From a virus (Duplodnaviria > Heunggongvirae > Uroviricota > Caudoviricetes), in the IMG/VR virus record IMGVR_UViG_2565956607_000001, positions 1-18,748 of that record: a stretch of 18,748 nt of DNA; one strand, written 5' to 3'. The position numbers and the translations under genes were made by a program. Below the pieces are notes generated by a model. It made no database searches and was not told where the DNA came from. It saw only the letters and a program-made list of their open reading frames with translations. This document shows positions 4,586-18,748 of this stretch, piece after piece. The first letter of the stretch is position 1, and each line of letters begins with the position of its first letter.

Positions 4586-7500
4586 CTATCTTGGTTTTTT
4601 AGATTGGAGATTTGAATAAATAGCCCGACCGAATTTCTTCTGGGGGTTATTTACTTCGGCGGTTAAGGTGTTAACTATCCGCTGTTCCAGAGCGTCATTC
4701 CTTCGCTCAATTGCCTGCATCGTTATGTCATCCGGTTTACCGGTGAACGTACTTCTGGCATCTACGCTGACAGCAATTCGTGGCTGTGCCTGGATCTGGT
4801 TAGCAGCGTTCTGTACCGCCGGCGATTCCCGCCCAACAGCTTTGACCCCCAGCGAACCATCAGCGCCACGGGTAAGCGGCATGATGGCTTCCGGCCCGGC
4901 CTCGCCGAATACACCCGCCCCTTTCGCAAACGCAAAATATTGGGGAGTGCTGTAAACACCATTGCTGTAGGCAGAAAGTGACGGAGAATCGTAAACGCCT
5001 CCGAGAGCGTTGAATGAAAAATTAGCTCCCGCGCTTTGAATAGCGGTACCACTACTTACCGCACCGCTGGCACCGCCAAAAAGACTACCGAACAACCCAC
5101 CCGCTCCGCCGCCAAATGACGCCATAATCGCTTTGGTGATCAACGCCTGTGTTGCCATCTGGATCAGCGTCTTAATCACCGTTTCACCCAGAGAGCTGAA
5201 GATATTCGACATACCATCTTTAAACGAAGTGGCGCCCGTCAGGACGCTAGTCAGGTTGTTCGAGATCGAGTTAGTGGTGGCATCCAGAATTTCGCTGGTT
5301 GCAGTAGCAGCCATTGAACTCAGATCAGAAGCCTGATCGGCATAGTTCATCAGGGAATCGCTGATCCCTGCCCGCCAGTCTGACTGCTGTTCATCGGTTT
5401 TTTTGTAATACTCCTCCTGAATATCCAGGCGTTCGGCAAGCGCTGCTTTAAGCGCTTCCGTTTGCTTTTTATACAGGTCTTCGGAAATCTGCCCACGACT
5501 GAAATCACGTTGTAAATCCCGCTGCTGCCTGAGAAAATCAGCGCGAATATCCGCCATTTCCTTCATTCGGTCACGGGCTTTATCCCCCTGTCCCGCGCCG
5601 AGGAAATCGATATTCCCCCTTTCCCGGGCGGCAGTATTACTGTCGGCCAGACCTTCGCGGAATGTTTTTAACTGTTCAGCGATATTTTTCTGATCAATAA
5701 GCGCCGCATTGTGCAGCAACGTTTCCTTTTTGGATTTTTCAAGCGAAGATAATTCCCCCTGAGTAACCTGATATTTCATCTTTGCCAGCTCAGTGTTTTG
5801 GCTGGAAAGAGCAATTTGCTCCCGTTGCTGTTTAATCAGCCGGGTATAGGTATCTTCGGTTTTCTCCGCCTCGGTTTTCCCATGCCTTCCTTTTGGCTTG
5901 GGTTTATTTTCCTGGTTGTTTCTCCATTCATTCAGGCCGTTATTAATCAACTCCTGCCGTCCGGTCTGAAACTGTGGGTCGTTAGTTAACCCCAGGTCAT
6001 CCGCAGCATAACCCAGTCGTGCGCGCTCCTTGTCCTCACCTTTGAGTTTTGAAAGCGCCAGATCACGACGGCTTTTTTCAAGTGCAGCCGTTTGCTGGGT
6101 TGTCAGGTCTACCTGTGGTAAGCGTACTGGTGCGTTTACCAGCCCCTGTCGGGCCATGAGAAGATTATTTCCGAGACCCAGCAAACGGTTAAATTCAGTA
6201 TGCTCACCGTTCATCATTAATAACGATTGATATGCTGAATTCTGTTCTGCAGCCTGCTGCCGGATTAATGCTATTCGCCTGTTCTCTATCCCTTCCAGTA
6301 CCGACTGGATCGACTCAGACTTAGCCTGCATCTGAGCTAACCTCTCCTGTTCAACGGCCAGAGCGGAAGTCGCTTCTTCCAGACCACGGGTGACCGTTTC
6401 GACCGAAGTCAGGTGGTTTATCATGAAACCGCCACTGGTTGTTGGTCCGGGGTTAGACAGGACATACTGATAGCCAGCGATCTCTTCCTTCAGGCTTTTT
6501 ACTTTAGATGCCTGGGCATCAACAAGACGGTTTTGCTCCTCCAGCGCCTGACGGGTTTTGGTCTCATTATCAGAAACTTCGGGCAGGGACATTGATTTTG
6601 TCTTTTCACGGACAGCATCAATGGTGTTTGCATATTCCTGAGCGGATAATCTGGCCTGCTCCTGATTCTGGTACATCGTGTACCAGGCACCGGCACCAAG
6701 CAAAACCAGCCCAGGAATACCGCCAACGAGGCCTAATGCTCCCCCCATGAGCCGGGAACCTACAGCAGTAACCGAGTTCAGTGCAGTCTGAGCGGATACT
6801 CTGGCCTGAATATTACGGTTAAGTGACTCCTGCGCCAGTGAGAGCCGTTTTTCTGCGGCGGCCTGCGCGTCTGTACCCCGCGCCGCTGCCAGTGCCTGCT
6901 GGGCACGATAAACTGCAGCACGCGCACGAGCTGTCGAAACCTGCGTCCCTCTGACCTGGGCTTCAGCTAAAGCTACTTCGCTTTTTGCGGCGTTAATAAT
7001 CCCAGCCGTTGCAGAGCTGGCACCAAGAGCCATATTTCCCAAATATCGGGCAGCACCAACGGCAACAAGCGCTCCGGCAGCAGTGGCGACCTGATCAATA
7101 TTGTTGGCTACGCCATCAAGTAATCCGGTCAGGGTATTTGTCGCGCCACTCGCTTCATTAGCTCCACCGACCCATTGCATAAAAGCGTTTTCAACTTTTG
7201 TTGCCGACGATGAAACGGTCTGCGGCAACTCACCATATTCATTCCGGAGCTTACCAAGCTGGCTGATGAGGGCCGGAACTACTTTATCAATGGTTAACTG
7301 CCCCTGATCCGCCATAGATTTAAGGTCTTTACGCGCAACCCCCATCCCTGCCGCAAGCGCCCGTATAACCCTGTCGCCGCTCTCGTTGACGGCATTGAAT
7401 TCTTCGCCTCTCAGCACGCCCTGCGCCAGAGCCTGGCTAAACTGAGTGATGACCGAACTGGACTCCTGAGCATTCGCGCCAGAAAGTTTTAAACCAGTAG

Positions 7501-11557: not shown

Positions 11558-12775
11558 TTACTGACCGCCAGCAACCGGTACAGTGAAGGAGCCGTAAATA
11601 AATGCCTCCGGCCGTTTTACTGCCAATGCCAATCGCTCTTCACAGCGGATCGAGATCATGTTCTTCTCGAAGTCGTCGGCGTTCTCAGTAGAAATAACAA
11701 CGTTGGCATCTTCACGGTCGAAGAGCTGCGCCGCTGCGTTGAATGCACCGGTCAGGAACTTACCCTGGAATGCCGGCGCTTCGGTCGCCACCACCGGCAG
11801 CCCCCACAGGGTGGGCCCGGTCAGCGCCGCCGGGTTTGCCAGGATATAGCGGCCCAGCGTGTCCTTTGTAAGCTCAATCTTCGCCCAGTCGATAAAGTGC
11901 AGAACGTGACCGGACGCCGGGAAGCGCGCCAGTTGCGCCTGAAGCATAGCGAGACGCAGATCATCAATGCCGTTCTGCTGCTCGACTTCAAAAGCAGCAG
12001 CAAAGGCAGTTGCCTGTGGAACAATGCCGTGAAGATGAACGCCGGTACCGTCTCCGAACAGAATTTCCTGTTCCTCCACATACTTCAGGCCGTAGCGCAT
12101 TTCCGCGTCGACCGTCGACTGCAACTGGGCAAAGTCATCCAGGATCTGTTTGGACGCCTTGAACATGTGTGCGATGGTGGTGACCGGGGTGATTTTGGTT
12201 GCAAACTCAATGTCGCTGTACGGCTTGGTGGTACCCTCTGCGACAACTTTTGCCGCATTAGTAAACCCAGTTTGCTGCACCCAGAAAATTGCAGGCGCGC
12301 CGGTACGACCTGGAGCAATCAGATCACGGATAAACAGTCGCTGTTTTGGCGTGGTATCGATGCCCGGCAAACGCTGGGGTTCAACAACCCCATCAGCAAC
12401 ACCTGTTGAAAGCAGGGCTGCATTAACCGGAATACTCAGGCGCTTGCCACCTTCTACGCTCGCCGCAAAGGTTTTCAATGCTTCGGAGTTAATCACCACC
12501 TGGCCCACGGTTTCGACCACTTTTGCAGCATTTGACAGCGGCATCTGGGCTACGTGCTGCTCCAGTTCGCCGAGCGCGGCTTTGAGGGCCTTTTCTGCCT
12601 CGCGCATGGCGTTAAGTTCAGTCGCCATCTTATCCACTGAAGCCTTTGTCTCTTCAGAAAGCCTGCCGGACTTCTGCGCCTCCTTAAGAGCATCCTCAGC
12701 CTTGGCGTTGAATTTGCTGGTCGCCTCTTCAATTGAGGCGGTTACTTTTTTCAGAATATCGTTTACGTCAGACAT
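11558..12775 (-). CDS. Major capsid protein, HK97-fold (405 aa)
   Basis: Roughly 400-aa protein directly after the prohead protease gene; Ala/Gly-rich, typical of HK97-family capsid proteins. Confidence 0.8.
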   Translation of the reverse strand: MSDVNDILKKVTASIEEATSKFNAKAEDALKEAQKSGRLSEETKASVDKMATELNAMREAEKALKAALGELEQHVAQMPLSNAAKVVETVGQVVINSEALKTFAASVEGGKRLSIPVNAALLSTGVADGVVEPQRLPGIDTTPKQRLFIRDLIAPGRTGAPAIFWVQQTGFTNAAKVVAEGTTKPYSDIEFATKITPVTTIAHMFKASKQILDDFAQLQSTVDAEMRYGLKYVEEQEILFGDGTGVHLHGIVPQATAFAAAFEVEQQNGIDDLRLAMLQAQLARFPASGHVLHFIDWAKIELTKDTLGRYILANPAALTGPTLWGLPVVATEAPAFQGKFLTGAFNAAAQLFDREDANVVISTENADDFEKNMISIRCEERLALAVKRPEAFIYGSFTVPVAGGQ

Positions 12776-12785
12776 ACGTTCTCCG

Positions 12786-13640
12786 TTACTGGCATGCGTT
12801 AGCCAGGCCGCTTAATGCGACATCCAGCTCAGCTAAAATTTCAGGGTTGGGTTGGGTAGCGCGCGGCATACCATCGGGATCGGTAACAGCGCCCGGCGTG
12901 TTACCAGTTAAAGCTTTGATTAATTTCCGGCGTTCAGACCGGGGGGTATTTGTTTTCGCCAGCAGAGCATCAAGTTTGCGAAGCGCAGCTGCAGGTGATT
13001 CGTCGCCGTCGCTGACCGCATCAGCAGAAAGCAGGCTGTCTGCCAGTCCCTTCGCCACAGCATCGCTGCCACCGATATAACTTTCGGCGTCCATCAGTTT
13101 CTGAACGGCGGCAATATCAAGGCCGGATCGCGCCGCGTAGATATCAGCCATTGCGGTATCGAATGGTTCCAGTGACTGTGCCAGTTCAGCAAAGTCAAGG
13201 CGGTTTCCCATCGCGTACACCCAGCAGTTGTGGATCATCAGGAATGCACCGCGGCCAATCTGAATATCATCCCCGGCCATCGCAATTATTGAAGCGGCAC
13301 TGGCGGCAATGCCCAGCACCTTCACCGTTACACGGCCTTCGTATTCACGGAGGAGGTTATAAATAGCCAGACCTTCGAACATGTCGCCGCCCGGCGAGTT
13401 GATATTCACCGTAACATCGGCGCCGTTCATCGCCCGAAGCGCACCGGCAATACGTTTAGCTGTTATCCCTTCCCCCCAGTAGTCCTGCCCTATAACATCA
13501 AAAACAGAAATACTGTTATCGTCGGTGGCCGCCGCCTTGATTCCACCGTCCCAGCGGTCCAGTGCGGACGGTAATGTTTCACAGGTAACGCGCGCGCAGG
13601 GGCGACCCGCCGGCGCCACCGGAAGTTGTTTTTTGCTCAT
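12786..13640 (-). CDS. Prohead maturation protease, ClpP/S14-like (284 aa)
   Basis: ClpP-type motifs (NSPGGDMFEGLAIYN; GIAASAASIIAMAGD) and position between portal and capsid genes. Confidence 0.8.
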   Translation of the reverse strand: MSKKQLPVAPAGRPCARVTCETLPSALDRWDGGIKAAATDDNSISVFDVIGQDYWGEGITAKRIAGALRAMNGADVTVNINSPGGDMFEGLAIYNLLREYEGRVTVKVLGIAASAASIIAMAGDDIQIGRGAFLMIHNCWVYAMGNRLDFAELAQSLEPFDTAMADIYAARSGLDIAAVQKLMDAESYIGGSDAVAKGLADSLLSADAVSDGDESPAAALRKLDALLAKTNTPRSERRKLIKALTGNTPGAVTDPDGMPRATQPNPEILAELDVALSGLANACQ

Positions 13641-13653
13641 CAGGAAAGTGCTC

Positions 13654-14961
13654 CTAAGCGGCCTGTTTCAGCGGAGATTGTTCAAAGGAAATGTCGGGGA
13701 ATACGTGGTTATGCAGCTCTCGCAAAGCCAGAGCCTGAACAGCAGGGTTGCTGCTTTCGAGATTTTTCAGTTGCGTCAGGTTGAGCTGAACGGTGTAAAT
13801 ATCGCCCCCTTCAATCGGCGGCATGTTTTCAAGACGGCGAACGTCATTGCGAGACATCCAGCCATTCTGCAGGGCGCTGGTATAGTAAGCAGCACGACCC
13901 GCACTATCGGCGCGCAGAAGCCCTTCAACGGAGAACTCAGCAAACAAGTCCTCATCACTGTTAAGAAGACAACGCGATATTTCCTGCTCAATATTGACCA
14001 GGAGAGGACGCAGGGTATGAGTCAGGAACAGCATGTTCATCCCTTCAAGACTCGAAGCCCAGCTGGATTGTTTTGTCGTATGGCCGACCATAAATGGCGG
14101 TACGCGAAACCAGCGACAAATTTCCTCAATACTGAATGAACGGCTTTCAAGGAGCTGAGCGGCCTCCGGGTTCATAGTGACATTCTGGTAAGTCAGTTCA
14201 TTTTCGAGAACCATCAGTTTCCCGGCGTTTTTAGAACCAATAAAAGACTGAAGGTTTTGACGCAATCTTTCTCGCTGTTCCTTATTAAGCGCCGTTTTTG
14301 AAGACAGGAAACCAGTACTTTGCAGGCCATTTTCGAAGATTTTTGCCGCGGCTTCATCAACCGACATAGCAGCGCCGAAAACGTCAACCCCGGCCATTGT
14401 CGGCATCATGCCGCACACGCCATCGAGACCAAACCCACGAATATGCATCATCCTGTCTACAGGAATGATCCGCGGAACGCCATTTTCCGTGTAGGTGTAC
14501 TGTAATTTTCCGCTATCGAGTCGCTTTACAACCATTTTCTGAGGAAGAAGCGGAACCATTGATACCAGCTTGTTACCAATGAAAAACTTTTCGACAAAAG
14601 CATTACCACGCAGACAAATGCTGGCCACAATCATCAGCATGAAACGGGAAGGTGTCATTTCCGGGTTAGGGCGCCTGCATAATATCTGGTATGCAAGATT
14701 ATTCTGGGCCAGTTTTCTAGATCCATCTGACTGTCTCTCGTAAATTTTTAGCGGAAGCGTGGATACCGACTCACTCAAGAGCCTCACGCACGCCCAGACG
14801 GTAGAAAGCCTGATAATTTTGTCAGCGGTGACAACTTTTCCGCTACTGCTGGTCCCGAACCACTCCTGCCAGAATTCACCGGTAGTCAGGCCTATGGGAA
14901 CACCAAGCCAGTTTAAAAGGGCGCTCTTAACGCGCCCTGGTTGCTGTTTATTCTTAGCCAT
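13654..14961 (-). CDS. Portal protein (435 aa)
   Basis: Size and position immediately after the large terminase gene; portal stop and TerL start abut at 14961. Confidence 0.8.
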   Translation of the reverse strand: MAKNKQQPGRVKSALLNWLGVPIGLTTGEFWQEWFGTSSSGKVVTADKIIRLSTVWACVRLLSESVSTLPLKIYERQSDGSRKLAQNNLAYQILCRRPNPEMTPSRFMLMIVASICLRGNAFVEKFFIGNKLVSMVPLLPQKMVVKRLDSGKLQYTYTENGVPRIIPVDRMMHIRGFGLDGVCGMMPTMAGVDVFGAAMSVDEAAAKIFENGLQSTGFLSSKTALNKEQRERLRQNLQSFIGSKNAGKLMVLENELTYQNVTMNPEAAQLLESRSFSIEEICRWFRVPPFMVGHTTKQSSWASSLEGMNMLFLTHTLRPLLVNIEQEISRCLLNSDEDLFAEFSVEGLLRADSAGRAAYYTSALQNGWMSRNDVRRLENMPPIEGGDIYTVQLNLTQLKNLESSNPAVQALALRELHNHVFPDISFEQSPLKQAA

Positions 14962-16703
14962 CAGATACCCACTATGATCGGATCGTCAAAAAAGCCCTCA
15001 ATATCACCATCATCAGGCTCGTAACCTTCCGCAGCACCAATTGCCATCGCTGACGCAACCACACCATCTATTCGACCAGTACTCTTTTTCTTGGCGAATA
15101 TGCGGTTTTCTTTTTGGTCGGCTTCGGTTACGGCGGAAGCAGCGTTCCATCGGAGGCAGGGGTTAGTTTTAATAATGATTACGCCATCATCCAGCATCTG
15201 TTCAAAGAGTTCGATGGAATGAGGCATCCACAGTCCTGAATCCTGCGCCTTGTAGTATCCCTGCCCGTGAGGAATAAGCGGTACTGATACAGAAGCGTTT
15301 TCCAGTTCTGGTTCAAGATATTTGATGCGGTACTGGTCGAAGGCGATCGCCTTGATATCGAACAACATGGAAAGATCAGCAATACGTTCAGCAACAAAAC
15401 CATATTTCACCGCCTTTCCTGGCGTAGTATGAATATGGCCTCCCCGTTCCCATGCGTCATAAGGTACGCGGTCTGTTTTCGCTCTATCCAGCAAAGTATC
15501 TTTTGGTGTCCAGAACTCCACCAGCAGCTTTCTTTTTTTAGGGAAAAAGAGCGCCAGAGACGTAAGGTCGCGAGTTCCTGAAAGGTCCAGGCCGCCATAA
15601 CATTCTTCTCCCTGCAGCTCCTGCAGGTCAAAGTCCTCTTCGCACCCCATCCACACATCGCTACTCATCCAGGGGTTATCGGCATCCACCCACTGACAGA
15701 AGTTTAACCGCCGAACAATGCTTTCCTTCGACGGCATCCCCCGAGCCTGAGTAACCTGCTCACGCAGGTAGCGATCGGTAAAAGTATGACCAAGAGAGGG
15801 GTTTGCTTTTTTCCAGCAGGACTCGTCCTTGAATGGGTCTTCTCCTTCGTCCAGGGAGCAAATGAAAGAAAAGAAACTGTCATCCTCAATCGAGCCTTCG
15901 GCAACTTTCCGCCCATACTCGTGATAGTCGTAGCAGACGCTGGTTTTGTCGTGGCCGCTGTTAGTGATCATAAAAATCAACGCCTGGCGACGACCTTTCG
16001 TCCCGGCGCGCATCATTTCCACAACCTGGTTGTTTTTGTGCTCGTGAATTTCGTCAATCAGAGCACAGTGTGGGCGTGGCCCTGACTGCCCATCATCCGA
16101 ACTGATAGGCCGGAAAAATGAGCCGGTCTGAAGAAACGCAAGGTTCCACTCTTTCCCGGCGCCGCCTGATTTATTTATTCGCTGTGCTAACGCAGGGGAC
16201 TGATCCACCATCGCGACAGCATCACGAAAAAGGATCATGGCCTGGTCTTTTTTCGTCGCCGCTGCGTAGACTTCTGCGCGAGGTTCTTTATCGGCAACCA
16301 AACAGTAAAGAGCAATGCCCGCTGCAAGTGGAGATTTGCCAGAACCTTTGCCTGACTCGACGTAAGCCATGCGGTACCGGCGATAGTCGTCTGAGTTTTT
16401 CCAGCCGAATATCGAACCTACAATAAAGCACTGCCACGGCAGCAGGTTAAAGGGTTTTCCCTCATGCTCACCGCCGTTGAGCTTCAGTATTTTTGCAAAA
16501 AAGTCGATGGCACGCTGCGCCGCTGCAACATCCCATACCAACCCGCGAGCATGGCAGGATTCCAAATCCCTGAGATGTCGTTTACAGGAGTTTCTAATAT
16601 CAGGACCGGCGATTTCTTTGCCGGAGTCTACATCCCGCGCATATTGCGTGGCGGGATCAACCGAAGAACTGGTTGAGCGGGTCTTCTTCTTTTTCTCCAC
16701 CAT
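14961..16703 (-). CDS. Terminase large subunit (580 aa)
   Basis: Walker A-like P-loop (VESGKGSGKSPLAAG) near the N-terminus; size; position between small terminase and portal; start overlaps the TerS end by 47 bp in another frame. Confidence 0.85.
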   Translation of the reverse strand: MVEKKKKTRSTSSSVDPATQYARDVDSGKEIAGPDIRNSCKRHLRDLESCHARGLVWDVAAAQRAIDFFAKILKLNGGEHEGKPFNLLPWQCFIVGSIFGWKNSDDYRRYRMAYVESGKGSGKSPLAAGIALYCLVADKEPRAEVYAAATKKDQAMILFRDAVAMVDQSPALAQRINKSGGAGKEWNLAFLQTGSFFRPISSDDGQSGPRPHCALIDEIHEHKNNQVVEMMRAGTKGRRQALIFMITNSGHDKTSVCYDYHEYGRKVAEGSIEDDSFFSFICSLDEGEDPFKDESCWKKANPSLGHTFTDRYLREQVTQARGMPSKESIVRRLNFCQWVDADNPWMSSDVWMGCEEDFDLQELQGEECYGGLDLSGTRDLTSLALFFPKKRKLLVEFWTPKDTLLDRAKTDRVPYDAWERGGHIHTTPGKAVKYGFVAERIADLSMLFDIKAIAFDQYRIKYLEPELENASVSVPLIPHGQGYYKAQDSGLWMPHSIELFEQMLDDGVIIIKTNPCLRWNAASAVTEADQKENRIFAKKKSTGRIDGVVASAMAIGAAEGYEPDDGDIEGFFDDPIIVGI

Positions 16704-17121
16704 CCACTTTCACCTTCGTTCTGGCGGCCGGAGTCAGACCGAATTCAACCAGGTAACTTTTGAAACGGCGATCAGCGTCGGCAAGCATGGCTACCGCCGG
16801 GTTAGCCTTAATCAAAAACCCGCCCTCTGTCTGCACGGTGTAAGTTCGCCCCTCGTCAGCAATAGTCAGGCGAAGCTGCAGAATGTCGGCGTAAATATCG
16901 CAGAGTCGTTCGAGCGCCAGCGTATCGGCAATGGTTAAAATGCCCATGCCATCCAGCAGCACGGTCAGCTTCCCCCACGCCACCTTTCCCCAGTCAGTGA
17001 GGTGCTCTGGAGGGCTTGGGATTTCTCGCGCTGGCGATGGTTCTTTGTCGTTAAGTTTGCGTTTGCCCGGGTTGCCGGTAACCACTTTGAGGTGGGTCGG
17101 TTTCGGGCGTCGTCCTGCCAT
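16657..17121 (-). CDS. Terminase small subunit, P27-type (154 aa)
   Basis: Basic N-terminus (MAGRRPKPTHLKVVTGNPGKRKL), typical size, directly upstream of the large terminase and downstream of the HNH gene. Confidence 0.75.
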   Translation of the reverse strand: MAGRRPKPTHLKVVTGNPGKRKLNDKEPSPAREIPSPPEHLTDWGKVAWGKLTVLLDGMGILTIADTLALERLCDIYADILQLRLTIADEGRTYTVQTEGGFLIKANPAVAMLADADRRFKSYLVEFGLTPAARTKVKVDGGEKEEDPLNQFFG

Positions 17122-17303
17122 CGGAACCTCCCGGAAAAAAACTTTTCATTTCGCGGTTGTGCACAAAAAGGACTGGCGGCGGTCATTTGGGTTCGAGGTT
17201 CTGAACTTTTGACCCGCCCCTCCCCCTCAGATGAGAATTGATATCATTTGATTCAAAATGATTTCATTTACAATCATTCCCCCGCAAAAAATGAGATTAA
17301 ATA
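17122..17303. promoter_or_regulatory. Candidate cos / terminase recognition region: GC-rich tract plus an array of ATCATTT-type repeats
   Basis: A 19-bp imperfect direct repeat (17231-17249 and 17291-17309, 16/19 identical); ATCATTT/AAATGAT in both orientations at about 17243, 17256, 17272 and 17303; GC-rich GACCCGCCCCTCCCCCTCAG at 17211-17230; location between the HNH and TerS genes, where HK97-like phages carry cos. Confidence 0.35.
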
Positions 17304-17645
17304 TCATTTAAACCAATGTGAGTTAGGATCCAGGGGCATTCCGCTCTCATCACAACCGATGACGGTGCCACGCTTCTCCATTCGCTGCTTCGTTGAGTCG
17401 TGGTGCTGCTTGCACAGCCCTTGCCAGTTCTTCCGGCTCCAGAAAAGCTTTTGCGCCTTCGCTATTTCCTGGCTGTCACCAGAGCGCAGAGCCTCTTTCA
17501 GTTTGTGCGGGATGATGTGGTCAACCACCGTTGCCGCTGTCACCCTGCCTTGCTCCTGGCACATGACGCACAAGGGGTGCGCACGTAGGAAGATAAGACG
17601 CTCTCGGTCCCACTTGCTGCCGTAGATACGGGGCTCTTTGTTCAC
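17304..17645 (-). CDS. HNH endonuclease, packaging-associated (113 aa)
   Basis: Two Cys pairs with conserved His (CVMCQ...VDHIIPH...CKQHH); position immediately upstream of TerS; start is GTG with AGGAG 7 nt upstream. Confidence 0.85.
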   Translation of the reverse strand: MNKEPRIYGSKWDRERLIFLRAHPLCVMCQEQGRVTAATVVDHIIPHKLKEALRSGDSQEIAKAQKLFWSRKNWQGLCKQHHDSTKQRMEKRGTVIGCDESGMPLDPNSHWFK

Positions 17646-17700
17646 GTAATCGCTCCTTGAGCATTATCACAGGCGCTCAGCGAGTGCCTGCTGTAATGCC

Positions 17701-17946
17701 TTAGCTCGCCTGTTCTGCGATGGTATCAAACAGCGCCAGCGCCTCGGTCGACTCCTGAACTGCTTTGATGGTCCGCGCCACCACTTCGGATTCAGTTGTC
17801 ACGCGACTGTACTGCTGGATGAACAGCTGATATTTGAGCTGGCTATCCTGGACGAACTCAATCGCCTTAGCAGCGGCCGCGGTGTCGTAGTTCAGGGTGG
17901 AAAGCAGATTCAGTCGAATCTGTTCTGCCGGTGTGATCTCTGCCAT
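17701..17946 (-). CDS. Hypothetical small acidic protein (81 aa)
   Basis: GAGGT Shine-Dalgarno about 6 nt before the ATG; GC and codon usage resemble the structural genes. No recognisable motif. Confidence 0.5.
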   Translation of the reverse strand: MAEITPAEQIRLNLLSTLNYDTAAAAKAIEFVQDSQLKYQLFIQQYSRVTTESEVVARTIKAVQESTEALALFDTIAEQAS

Positions 17947-18123: not shown

Positions 18124-18148
18124 TAAAAAGCCCCGCATAAACGGGGCT
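18124..18148 (-). terminator. Rho-independent terminator (stem AGCCCCG / CGGGGCT, 6-nt loop, then UUUUUAUUG on the minus strand)
   Basis: Read directly, 24 bp downstream of the stop of the 18172..18396 gene. Confidence 0.6.
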
Positions 18149-18171: not shown

Positions 18172-18396
18172 CTACTGATAGCTATCTGCAAAATGCCCTT
18201 CGATCTGAGATCTGACATCAACAGCTTCGTCTAACTTTAAGGAATCATAGCCCTTAATATGGAAATGAGGTTCATATGCATAAATAGTAATAAACGCATA
18301 TGACCCTTCATCTCCTGAGAAAATCTCATATTTGACGCGTGAAAGACCGGCACCAACTAACATGTATGCATCCAGAAGCTTATGGGTGTTCATCAT
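18172..18396 (-). CDS. Hypothetical protein (74 aa) in an AT-rich accessory cassette
   Basis: ATGATG start with an AAGGAAAAGGAA purine-rich RBS region; AT-rich compared with the structural module; followed by the terminator above. Confidence 0.5.
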   Translation of the reverse strand: MMNTHKLLDAYMLVGAGLSRVKYEIFSGDEGSYAFITIYAYEPHFHIKGYDSLKLDEAVDVRSQIEGHFADSYQ

Positions 18397-18501: not shown

Positions 18502-18693
18502 TTAATACCCACACAGCCATCCAATAATTCCAAAAAATAAAGCGGCAAGTAGCCAGCCAAGTGCAGTTTTCTTCATTAACACTCCGTAAAATGCTATAGA
18601 CATCCCTAGACAGAGCGTTATAAAAACTGGCCACATAGTCAATAACAAAAACAAATAACTGACTAACCCACTATTAATAGTTACATTCACCAC
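18502..18693 (-). CDS. Possible small hydrophobic membrane protein (63 aa; start assigned to a GTG with poor RBS, true start uncertain)
   Basis: Two or three hydrophobic segments (LVSYLFLLLTMWPVFITLCLGMSIAFYGVL; LGWLLAALFFGIIGWL); AT-rich; within 55 bp of the window edge, so context is incomplete. Confidence 0.35.
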   Translation of the reverse strand: MVNVTINSGLVSYLFLLLTMWPVFITLCLGMSIAFYGVLMKKTALGWLLAALFFGIIGWLCGY

Positions 18694-18748
18694 TAACTTA
18701 ACCCTGACGTTCTAAATAGACTGGCCCCCTGAATCTCCAGACAACCAA

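Follow-up and report, generated by a model that had tools for sequence, protein, structure and literature searches.

The open reading frame at 17304-17645 most probably encodes an HNH nuclease that assists packaging in a temperate HK97-like siphophage, present as a prophage in an enterobacterial chromosome, a reading to which we assign a probability of about 0.9. The gene lies on the minus strand of an 18,748-nucleotide stretch of a Caudoviricetes record (hereafter the window), is the orthologue of HK97 gp74, and is followed by a spacer with a predicted cos site and then by the terminase genes. The interpretation offered in the earlier note is supported. The biology holds no novelty: this gene family has been known since 2012-2014, along with where it lies and what it does, and the feature already carries an annotation. 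The gain is one of annotation: packaging of this prophage can be predicted to be cos-type with fixed ends, and the virion ends can be predicted to the base (17172-17181), which is useful for orienting and delimiting the phage genome. Considerations of transduction should likewise assume fixed cos ends and not headful packaging.

The ORF described in the earlier note is present exactly as given, on the minus strand and 113 aa long, with the stop codon included in its coordinates. Translation starts with the GTG at 17645, 7 nt downstream of a Shine-Dalgarno sequence, AAGGAG (17653-17658, minus strand), and this is the same codon as the ATG that opens HK97 gp74 and many of its relatives. The N-termini of the relatives that were compared all read M/V-N-K-E-P-R-I/V-Y-G-S, and the RefSeq entry for the same ORF in E. 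coli p10A (WP_004177164.1) is named ‘HNH endonuclease’. Two GenBank records, MK422452 and MK422450, give the protein as 79 aa from the internal Met28 (4704-4943 in locus L001), so that the part at 17562-17645 of the window is cut off. This shorter annotation is wrong, because it would lose Y8, W12 and C26, which are invariant in the family, C26 being the first zinc cysteine.

Homology to gp74 (NP_037756) extends over 102 aa without gaps at 72% identity (BLASTP, E=1e-59), and residue numbers therefore transfer directly from one protein to the other; by tblastn, the HK97-group phages HK022, HK544, HK633 and mEpX2 match at 72-73%. The best profile match, far beyond chance, is to PHROG 2323, ‘HNH endonuclease’, over the full length, with the PHROG HNH families that match spanning E-values from 4e-52 (PHROG 2323) to 8e-5; a search of NCBIfam with the protein gave no model match. 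The Pfam HNH model (PF01844) falls 0.3 bits short of its gathering score (21.1 against 21.4 bits) and covers only profile positions 1-24, the first half of the motif, and HK97 gp74 itself scores only 25.6 bits with the same model. These scores are low because a helical insertion of ~25 residues splits the motif between its two strands. In a search of 5.8 billion proteins, 187 relatives were recovered at E≤1e-5; those with an organism name come almost all from Enterobacterales, and the ones that carry a protein name are mostly called HNH endonuclease.

The HNH motifs were called clear when the sequence was first read. An alignment of 33 sequences shows no variation at C26, C29, D42, H43, H47, C78, H81 or H82, and at least 90% of the sequences keep N73. 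The zinc site consists of two Cys/His pairs, C26-x2-C29 and C78-x2-H81, all invariant, which flank the HNH motif proper. Within the H43/N73/H82 triad, D42-H43 falls in a predicted strand (40-43) and H82 in a helix (79-85), and gp74 has been described with the same CxxC...CxxH zinc site and H-N-H triad. The AlphaFold2 model (pLDDT 83) consists of strand 40-43, helices 49-55 and 58-68, strand 74-77 and helix 79-85, with pLDDT falling to 60-70 over the C-terminal 25 residues. As modelled, the protein is thus a beta-beta-alpha fold with a helical insertion (~47-72), matching the published description of gp74, for which an alpha-helical insertion in a beta-beta-alpha fold is given by Weiditch 2020, as cited in PMC13595911. 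Four distant homologues in the 33-sequence alignment are missing the insertion, and relatives of this kind occur among the metagenomic homologues.

Among solved structures, the top match to the model is the packaging HNH protein of Geobacillus phage GVE2 (5H0M; Foldseek probability 1.00, E=2.5e-4; sequence E=0.0014), followed by other HNH domains, Cas5-HNH and Cap5. A sequence search of the PDB with the window protein found the GVE2 HNH only, and no gp74 structure. Beyond the motif, the C-terminal tail GCDxxGxPxDxxxHW (residues 89-113, window 17307-17381) carries the invariant residues C98, D106 and H110, and H47 is invariant within the insertion; together, this tail and H47 could form a second metal site or a surface in contact with TerL.

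The genes around the HNH gene are those of a packaging and head module, all on the minus strand. Immediately upstream is a DUF2560 gene (17701-17946), found beside the HNH gene only in its closest relatives. Downstream, a 182-bp spacer containing cos (17303-17122) leads to a small terminase gene of the P27 family (TerS; 16657-17121; Terminase_4, TIGR01558 sm_term_P27), with a ribosome-binding site GGGAGG at 17127-17132 and its ATG at +51 from the predicted cut, and then to the large terminase gene (TerL; 14961-16703), which encodes ATPase and nuclease domains and is 31% identical to HK97 gp2 and 78% identical to the TerL of Pantoea phage AH07. The HNH gene is therefore directly upstream of TerS across cos, as the earlier note had it. 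Further along lie genes for an HK97-type portal protein (13654-14961; TIGR01537 portal_HK97), a ClpP-related head maturation protease (12786-13640) and an HK97-type major capsid protein (11558-12775; TIGR01554 major_cap_HK97), with the models for all three above their cut-offs. The description of the phage as HK97-type thus stands for the HNH protein, the portal and the capsid, and distantly for TerL, whereas TerS falls outside it, being a member of the unrelated P27/Terminase_4 family with no detectable similarity to HK97 gp1. TerS overlaps the TerL ORF by 47 nt (16657-16703) when the longest TerL ORF (580 aa) is taken; the TerL of AH07 is annotated with 559 aa and starts 20 nt past the TerS stop, and the true TerL start in the window may lie further downstream.

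In gene orientation, the last part of the spacer is ...GGGGGAGGGGCGGGTCAAAAGTTCAGAACCTCGAACCCAAATGAC CGCCGCCAGT CCTTTTTGTGCACAACCGCGAAATGAAAAGTTTTTTTCCGGGAGGTTCCG ATG, and in this sequence we place the predicted 10-nt cohesive end CGCCGCCAGT at 17172-17181 (minus strand), with nicks expected at 17172/17171 on the minus strand and at 17181/17182 on the plus strand. On the HNH side of the cut, the predicted cos comprises a G-tract, GGGGGAGGGGCGGG (17226-17213), then TCAAAAGTTCAGAACCT (17212-17196) and a stretch running to the cut as ...CCCAAATGAC, the whole covering 17182-17226; on the TerS side, positions +1 to +37 read CCTTTTTGTGCACAACCGCGAAATGAAAAGTTTTTTT (17135-17171, minus strand).

Two independent comparisons with phage termini support this placement. 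First, the right end of HK97, ...GGGGGGGGGATCAAATCTTCAAAACCTTTGCCCCAAATGACCGCCGCCAAA, aligns with the spacer at 75% identity over 79 nt (pairwise E=6e-11), an alignment that stops 2 nt from the HK97 terminus, and the final 10 nt of the HK97 record, CGCCGCCAAA, align without gaps at 17172-17181. The numbering of that record matches the cleavage site published by Chechik et al., in which position 16 is a T, position 21 a C:G pair and positions 24-29 the A-tract of the TerS site. Second, the ends of AH07 were set with PAUSE and PhageTerm from sequenced lysate DNA, and its record (MZ501270) starts with CCTTTTTATGCAC..., 50 nt ahead of the TerS ATG, and finishes with ...CCTCCTGAC. Joining these two ends and setting them beside an IMG/VR contig (L055), which otherwise has the same sequence over the junction and departs from it by three substitutions only later, within TerS, shows the AH07 record to be short of exactly 10 nt, CGCCCGCCCC; the gap is homologous to window 17172-17181. 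This is what would be expected of a single-stranded overhang lost in end polishing. The HK97 and AH07 lines both place a 10-nt overhang at 17172-17181, with the TerS ATG at +51, a prediction drawn from sequence comparison. The claims of cos-type packaging and of an anchor for the genome ends are accordingly well founded, because the spacer is homologous to both the HK97 terminus and the read-mapped termini of AH07.

The polarity of the overhang (3') is carried over from HK97, the AH07 gap showing only that 10 nt are missing. For HK97, PMC9410871 gives 10-nt 3' overhangs in the legend of its Fig. 1 and ‘12-nt 3' overhangs’ in its discussion. A text search of the literature for the HK97 overhang CGCCGCCAAA and its variants returned unrelated primer matches only. 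As a side result, the true unit genome of AH07 is apparently 10 nt longer than the recorded 37,859 bp.

Three other observations were set aside: an IMG/VR contig (L038) that ends 17 nt short of an HK97-type terminus and was judged uninformative; the record of Klebsiella phage P7641 (PQ133623), which is arbitrary or trimmed, starting at the HNH stop codon and finishing at the TerS ATG; and a GAC...GTC palindrome around the overhang that came up in a terminator scan (17171-17184), which is asymmetric to the predicted nicks and not conserved in HK97. Between the HNH stop and the G-tract, an AT-rich block (17231-17307) holds direct and inverted repeats of the AAATGAT/ATCATTT type, including two copies of ~20 nt, AAATGATAT(T/C)..(C)TCAT. 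The repeats are partly common to HK97 (TGAAATCATTT, CAAATGA...CATC) and absent from some P27-class relatives with shorter spacers. An IHF-type consensus, sought by eye in these repeats, was not found, and that they serve as an accessory site for terminase or a host factor is no more than a guess.

The function proposed for the gene derives from work on HK97. The packaging role of gp74 is reportedly the subject of studies by Moodley in 2012, Kala in 2014 and Weiditch in 2020. The protein gp74 promotes cos cleavage in a reconstituted in vitro packaging system (PMC9410871), binds TerL, needs a metal-binding histidine and is named among the factors that packaging requires in vivo (PMC13595911), so that the claim that such HNH proteins are needed alongside terminase in HK97-type phages agrees with these texts for a homologue at 72% identity. 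On its own, gp74 has a non-specific nicking activity. The mutated metal-binding histidine is one that we take to be H82 (H82A); a literature search for ‘gp74 H82A’ gave no match. Chechik et al. present a model for HK97 in which one strand is cut by TerL and the other by gp74.

By analogy, nuclease function, interaction with TerL, stimulation of cleavage and a requirement in vivo would be expected of the window protein as well. In the circular or concatemeric genome, the HNH gene would be the last late gene before cos. The P27-type TerS would bind the conserved block past the cut (~+1 to +37, 17171-17135) and so set TerL on cos, and the small HNH protein would bind TerL. Its beta-beta-alpha-metal site, with H43 as putative general base, N73, H82 as putative metal ligand and zinc held by C26, C29, C78 and H81, would then either stimulate the staggered cut or make one of the two nicks. 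The predicted product is a 10-nt 3' overhang, CGCCGCCAGT, after which the virion DNA would have the HNH gene on its right end and TerS on its left. Since TerS is unrelated to gp1, and TerL is only distantly related to gp2, the protein-protein contacts in this scheme are extrapolated across a large distance.

Whether such a role is still played depends on the state of the prophage. Klebsiella phage ST13-OXA48phi12.2 matches the region at 99% identity, and a prophage in E. coli p10A does so at 99.8%; in p10A, lysis genes and an antiterminator Q gene lie further upstream. Upstream of DUF2560 in the window are two small minus-strand ORFs, one of 74 aa (18172-18396; PHROG 38275, of unknown function) and one of 63 aa that encodes a hydrophobic protein (18502-18693); among complete E. 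coli genomes they occur together only in p10A/p10B, and they may be morons. Between the 74-aa ORF and the DUF2560-HNH-terminase genes, a strong intrinsic-terminator hairpin, AGCCCCGTTTATGCGGGGCT, followed by TTTTTATT, is found at 18129-18148 (minus strand), and late transcription presumably has to be antiterminated to reach the packaging genes, the Q gene lying upstream in E. coli p10A. The ~33 nt at 18716-18748 recur at 97-100% match in 1,680 of the 5,426 E. coli genomes, in at most 8 copies each, and at 551 places in plasmids. Such recurrence suggests the terminal repeat of an insertion sequence present in multiple copies, presumably similar to the end of IS2, and the prophage may be interrupted here.

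An intact orthologue of gp74 could thus sit idle in a cryptic or defective prophage, its packaging role being historical only. The insertion-element-like end at the window edge, ~1.1 kb upstream, would fit such an interruption, and the window covers the late region only, with integrase, repressor and replication genes outside it. We nevertheless regard an idle gene as very improbable, as every ORF for head, packaging or tail functions in the window is full length, a phage record of 99% identity exists (itself derived from a prophage prediction), and the HNH, TerS and cos blocks carry no disabling change relative to the plaque-forming AH07. A working packaging accessory remains our preferred reading.

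A second question is whether the gene serves packaging at all. Many phage HNH ORFs are homing endonucleases, and a free-standing, selfish element of this kind could have come to lie near the terminase genes by chance, spreading through repair after cutting HNH-less relatives. Xu and Gupta raised gene conversion as a possible role of cos-adjacent HNH nickases, and the HNH protein is far closer to its HK97 counterpart (72%) than are TerL (31%) and TerS (no similarity), which indicates that the HNH end of the genome has had an evolutionary history unlike that of the terminase. Against this stands a position that is fixed and not sporadic. In a survey of IMG/VR, 80 loci encode relatives of the HNH protein, and in 76 of the 77 with enough downstream sequence a same-strand TerL follows directly; the sole exception (L022) has a partial TerS and no TerL. 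Most of the loci have a recognisable TerS between the HNH gene and TerL, seven distant ones being without a TerS match to either query. Two unrelated TerS families, the P27 type of the window and the HK97 gp1 type, pair with one HNH family, and in linear phage records the two genes are parted, HNH at the right end, TerS at the left. Moreover, the protein is a single 113-aa domain without a separate DNA-binding module and is the orthologue of gp74, whose packaging role has been shown experimentally, and the mosaicism is accounted for by the cos junction as a module boundary. We therefore consider homing highly improbable.

A restriction-like or defence nuclease of the McrA type, carried as a prophage moron, is barely credible: some cluster relatives are annotated as ‘5-methylcytosine-specific restriction endonuclease McrA’, and Cap5 and Cas5-HNH contain HNH domains that give weak fold matches, but those matches have E-values of at least 0.04 and cover the HNH core only, the protein is only 113 aa long and the N-terminal domain that recognises 5mC is absent, the gene sits at a conserved position in the late operon, and PADLOC defence models gave no match to the protein at E≤0.01, in line with the earlier note, which held that it was not a defence nuclease.

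The pairing of one HNH family with two terminase lineages is mirrored in the sequence of the spacer itself. We aligned 66 non-redundant spacers, 44 from loci with a P27-type TerS and 22 from loci with an HK97-gp1-type TerS. The HNH-side half of cos is common to both classes, consisting of the G-tract, AAAnnTTCA and TGACCGCC at the cut. The TerS-side half (+1 to ~+45) is at least 90% invariant in the 44 P27-class loci and entirely different in the 22 of the HK97 class. The HK97 TerS site was placed at +15 to +29, on the terminase-gene side of the cut (Chechik et al.), and because that published site lies on this side, the binding region of the P27-type TerS would by analogy fall within 17171-17135.

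The cos of these phages appears modular, and it is conceivable, though in our view unlikely, that recognition of the cut site does not rest on TerS alone. The HNH-side half travels with the gp74-type HNH, perhaps because the conserved pair of HNH protein and TerL reads it, perhaps through simple co-inheritance with the HNH gene. If the pair does read it, proteins of the gp74 type would add sequence specificity beyond stimulating the cut, and, if true, such reading would explain how one HNH family can serve two terminase lineages. The division of cos into a TerS-specific and a shared half could guide work on which protein reads the cut site, and is of modest wider interest.

Among known systems, HK97 is close to the window module in its HNH protein and its HNH-side cos. 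The two nucleases belong to the same length class (113 aa in the window vs 119 aa for gp74) and share the zinc site, the D-H/N/H-H residues at identical numbering, the helical insertion and a conserved C-terminal tail, GCDxxGxPLDPxSHW; in both phages the HNH gene is the last before cos, followed by TerS and TerL, and homology between the two covers the HNH side of cos, with TGACCGCCGCC at the cut included. The differences begin with the partner, which is a TerS of the gp1 type in HK97 and of the P27/Terminase_4 type in the window, with a TerL of only 31% identity. Furthermore, the spacer to TerS measures 368 bp in HK97 as against 182 bp, and includes a stretch of its own that starts with an unannotated ATG overlapping the gp74 stop codon and is absent from the window. 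The start codon of gp74 is ATG and that of the window gene is GTG, and the overhangs diverge in their final 2-3 nt, CAGT in the window as against CAAA in HK97.

The HNH proteins of GVE2 (PDB 5H0M/5H0O) and of staphylococcal phages of the phiSLT/phi12 type are likewise small, are encoded next to cos and work with terminase. The GVE2 protein is more distant, with ~28% identity in the core and TM scores of 0.42-0.50 over 77 aligned columns, within which a helical insertion or C-terminal tail is not evident. Phage lambda has a bipartite layout of cosQ-cosN-cosB, in which conserved sequence flanks the cut on either side, much like the cos of the window, and its packaging is also cos-type, terminase cutting at a fixed site to give cohesive ends. 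The lambda system (gpNu1/gpA, IHF) differs in that its overhangs are 5', no HNH protein is needed and gpA makes both nicks (PMC9410871, PMC13595911). For the terminase side, the nearest relative among these systems is Pantoea phage AH07, whose TerS, TerL and HNH proteins are 93%, 78% and 73% identical to those of the window, whose TerS-side cos block is the same but for one base, with the TerS ATG at +51 in both, and whose ends, mapped from virion reads, fall at the site homologous to the predicted window cos. Here the two phages differ in the overhang, CGCCCGCCCC in AH07 vs CGCCGCCAGT in the window, and in the flank on the HNH side, GGGGCTAGCGACCTCCTGAC vs GAACCTCGAACCCAAATGAC.
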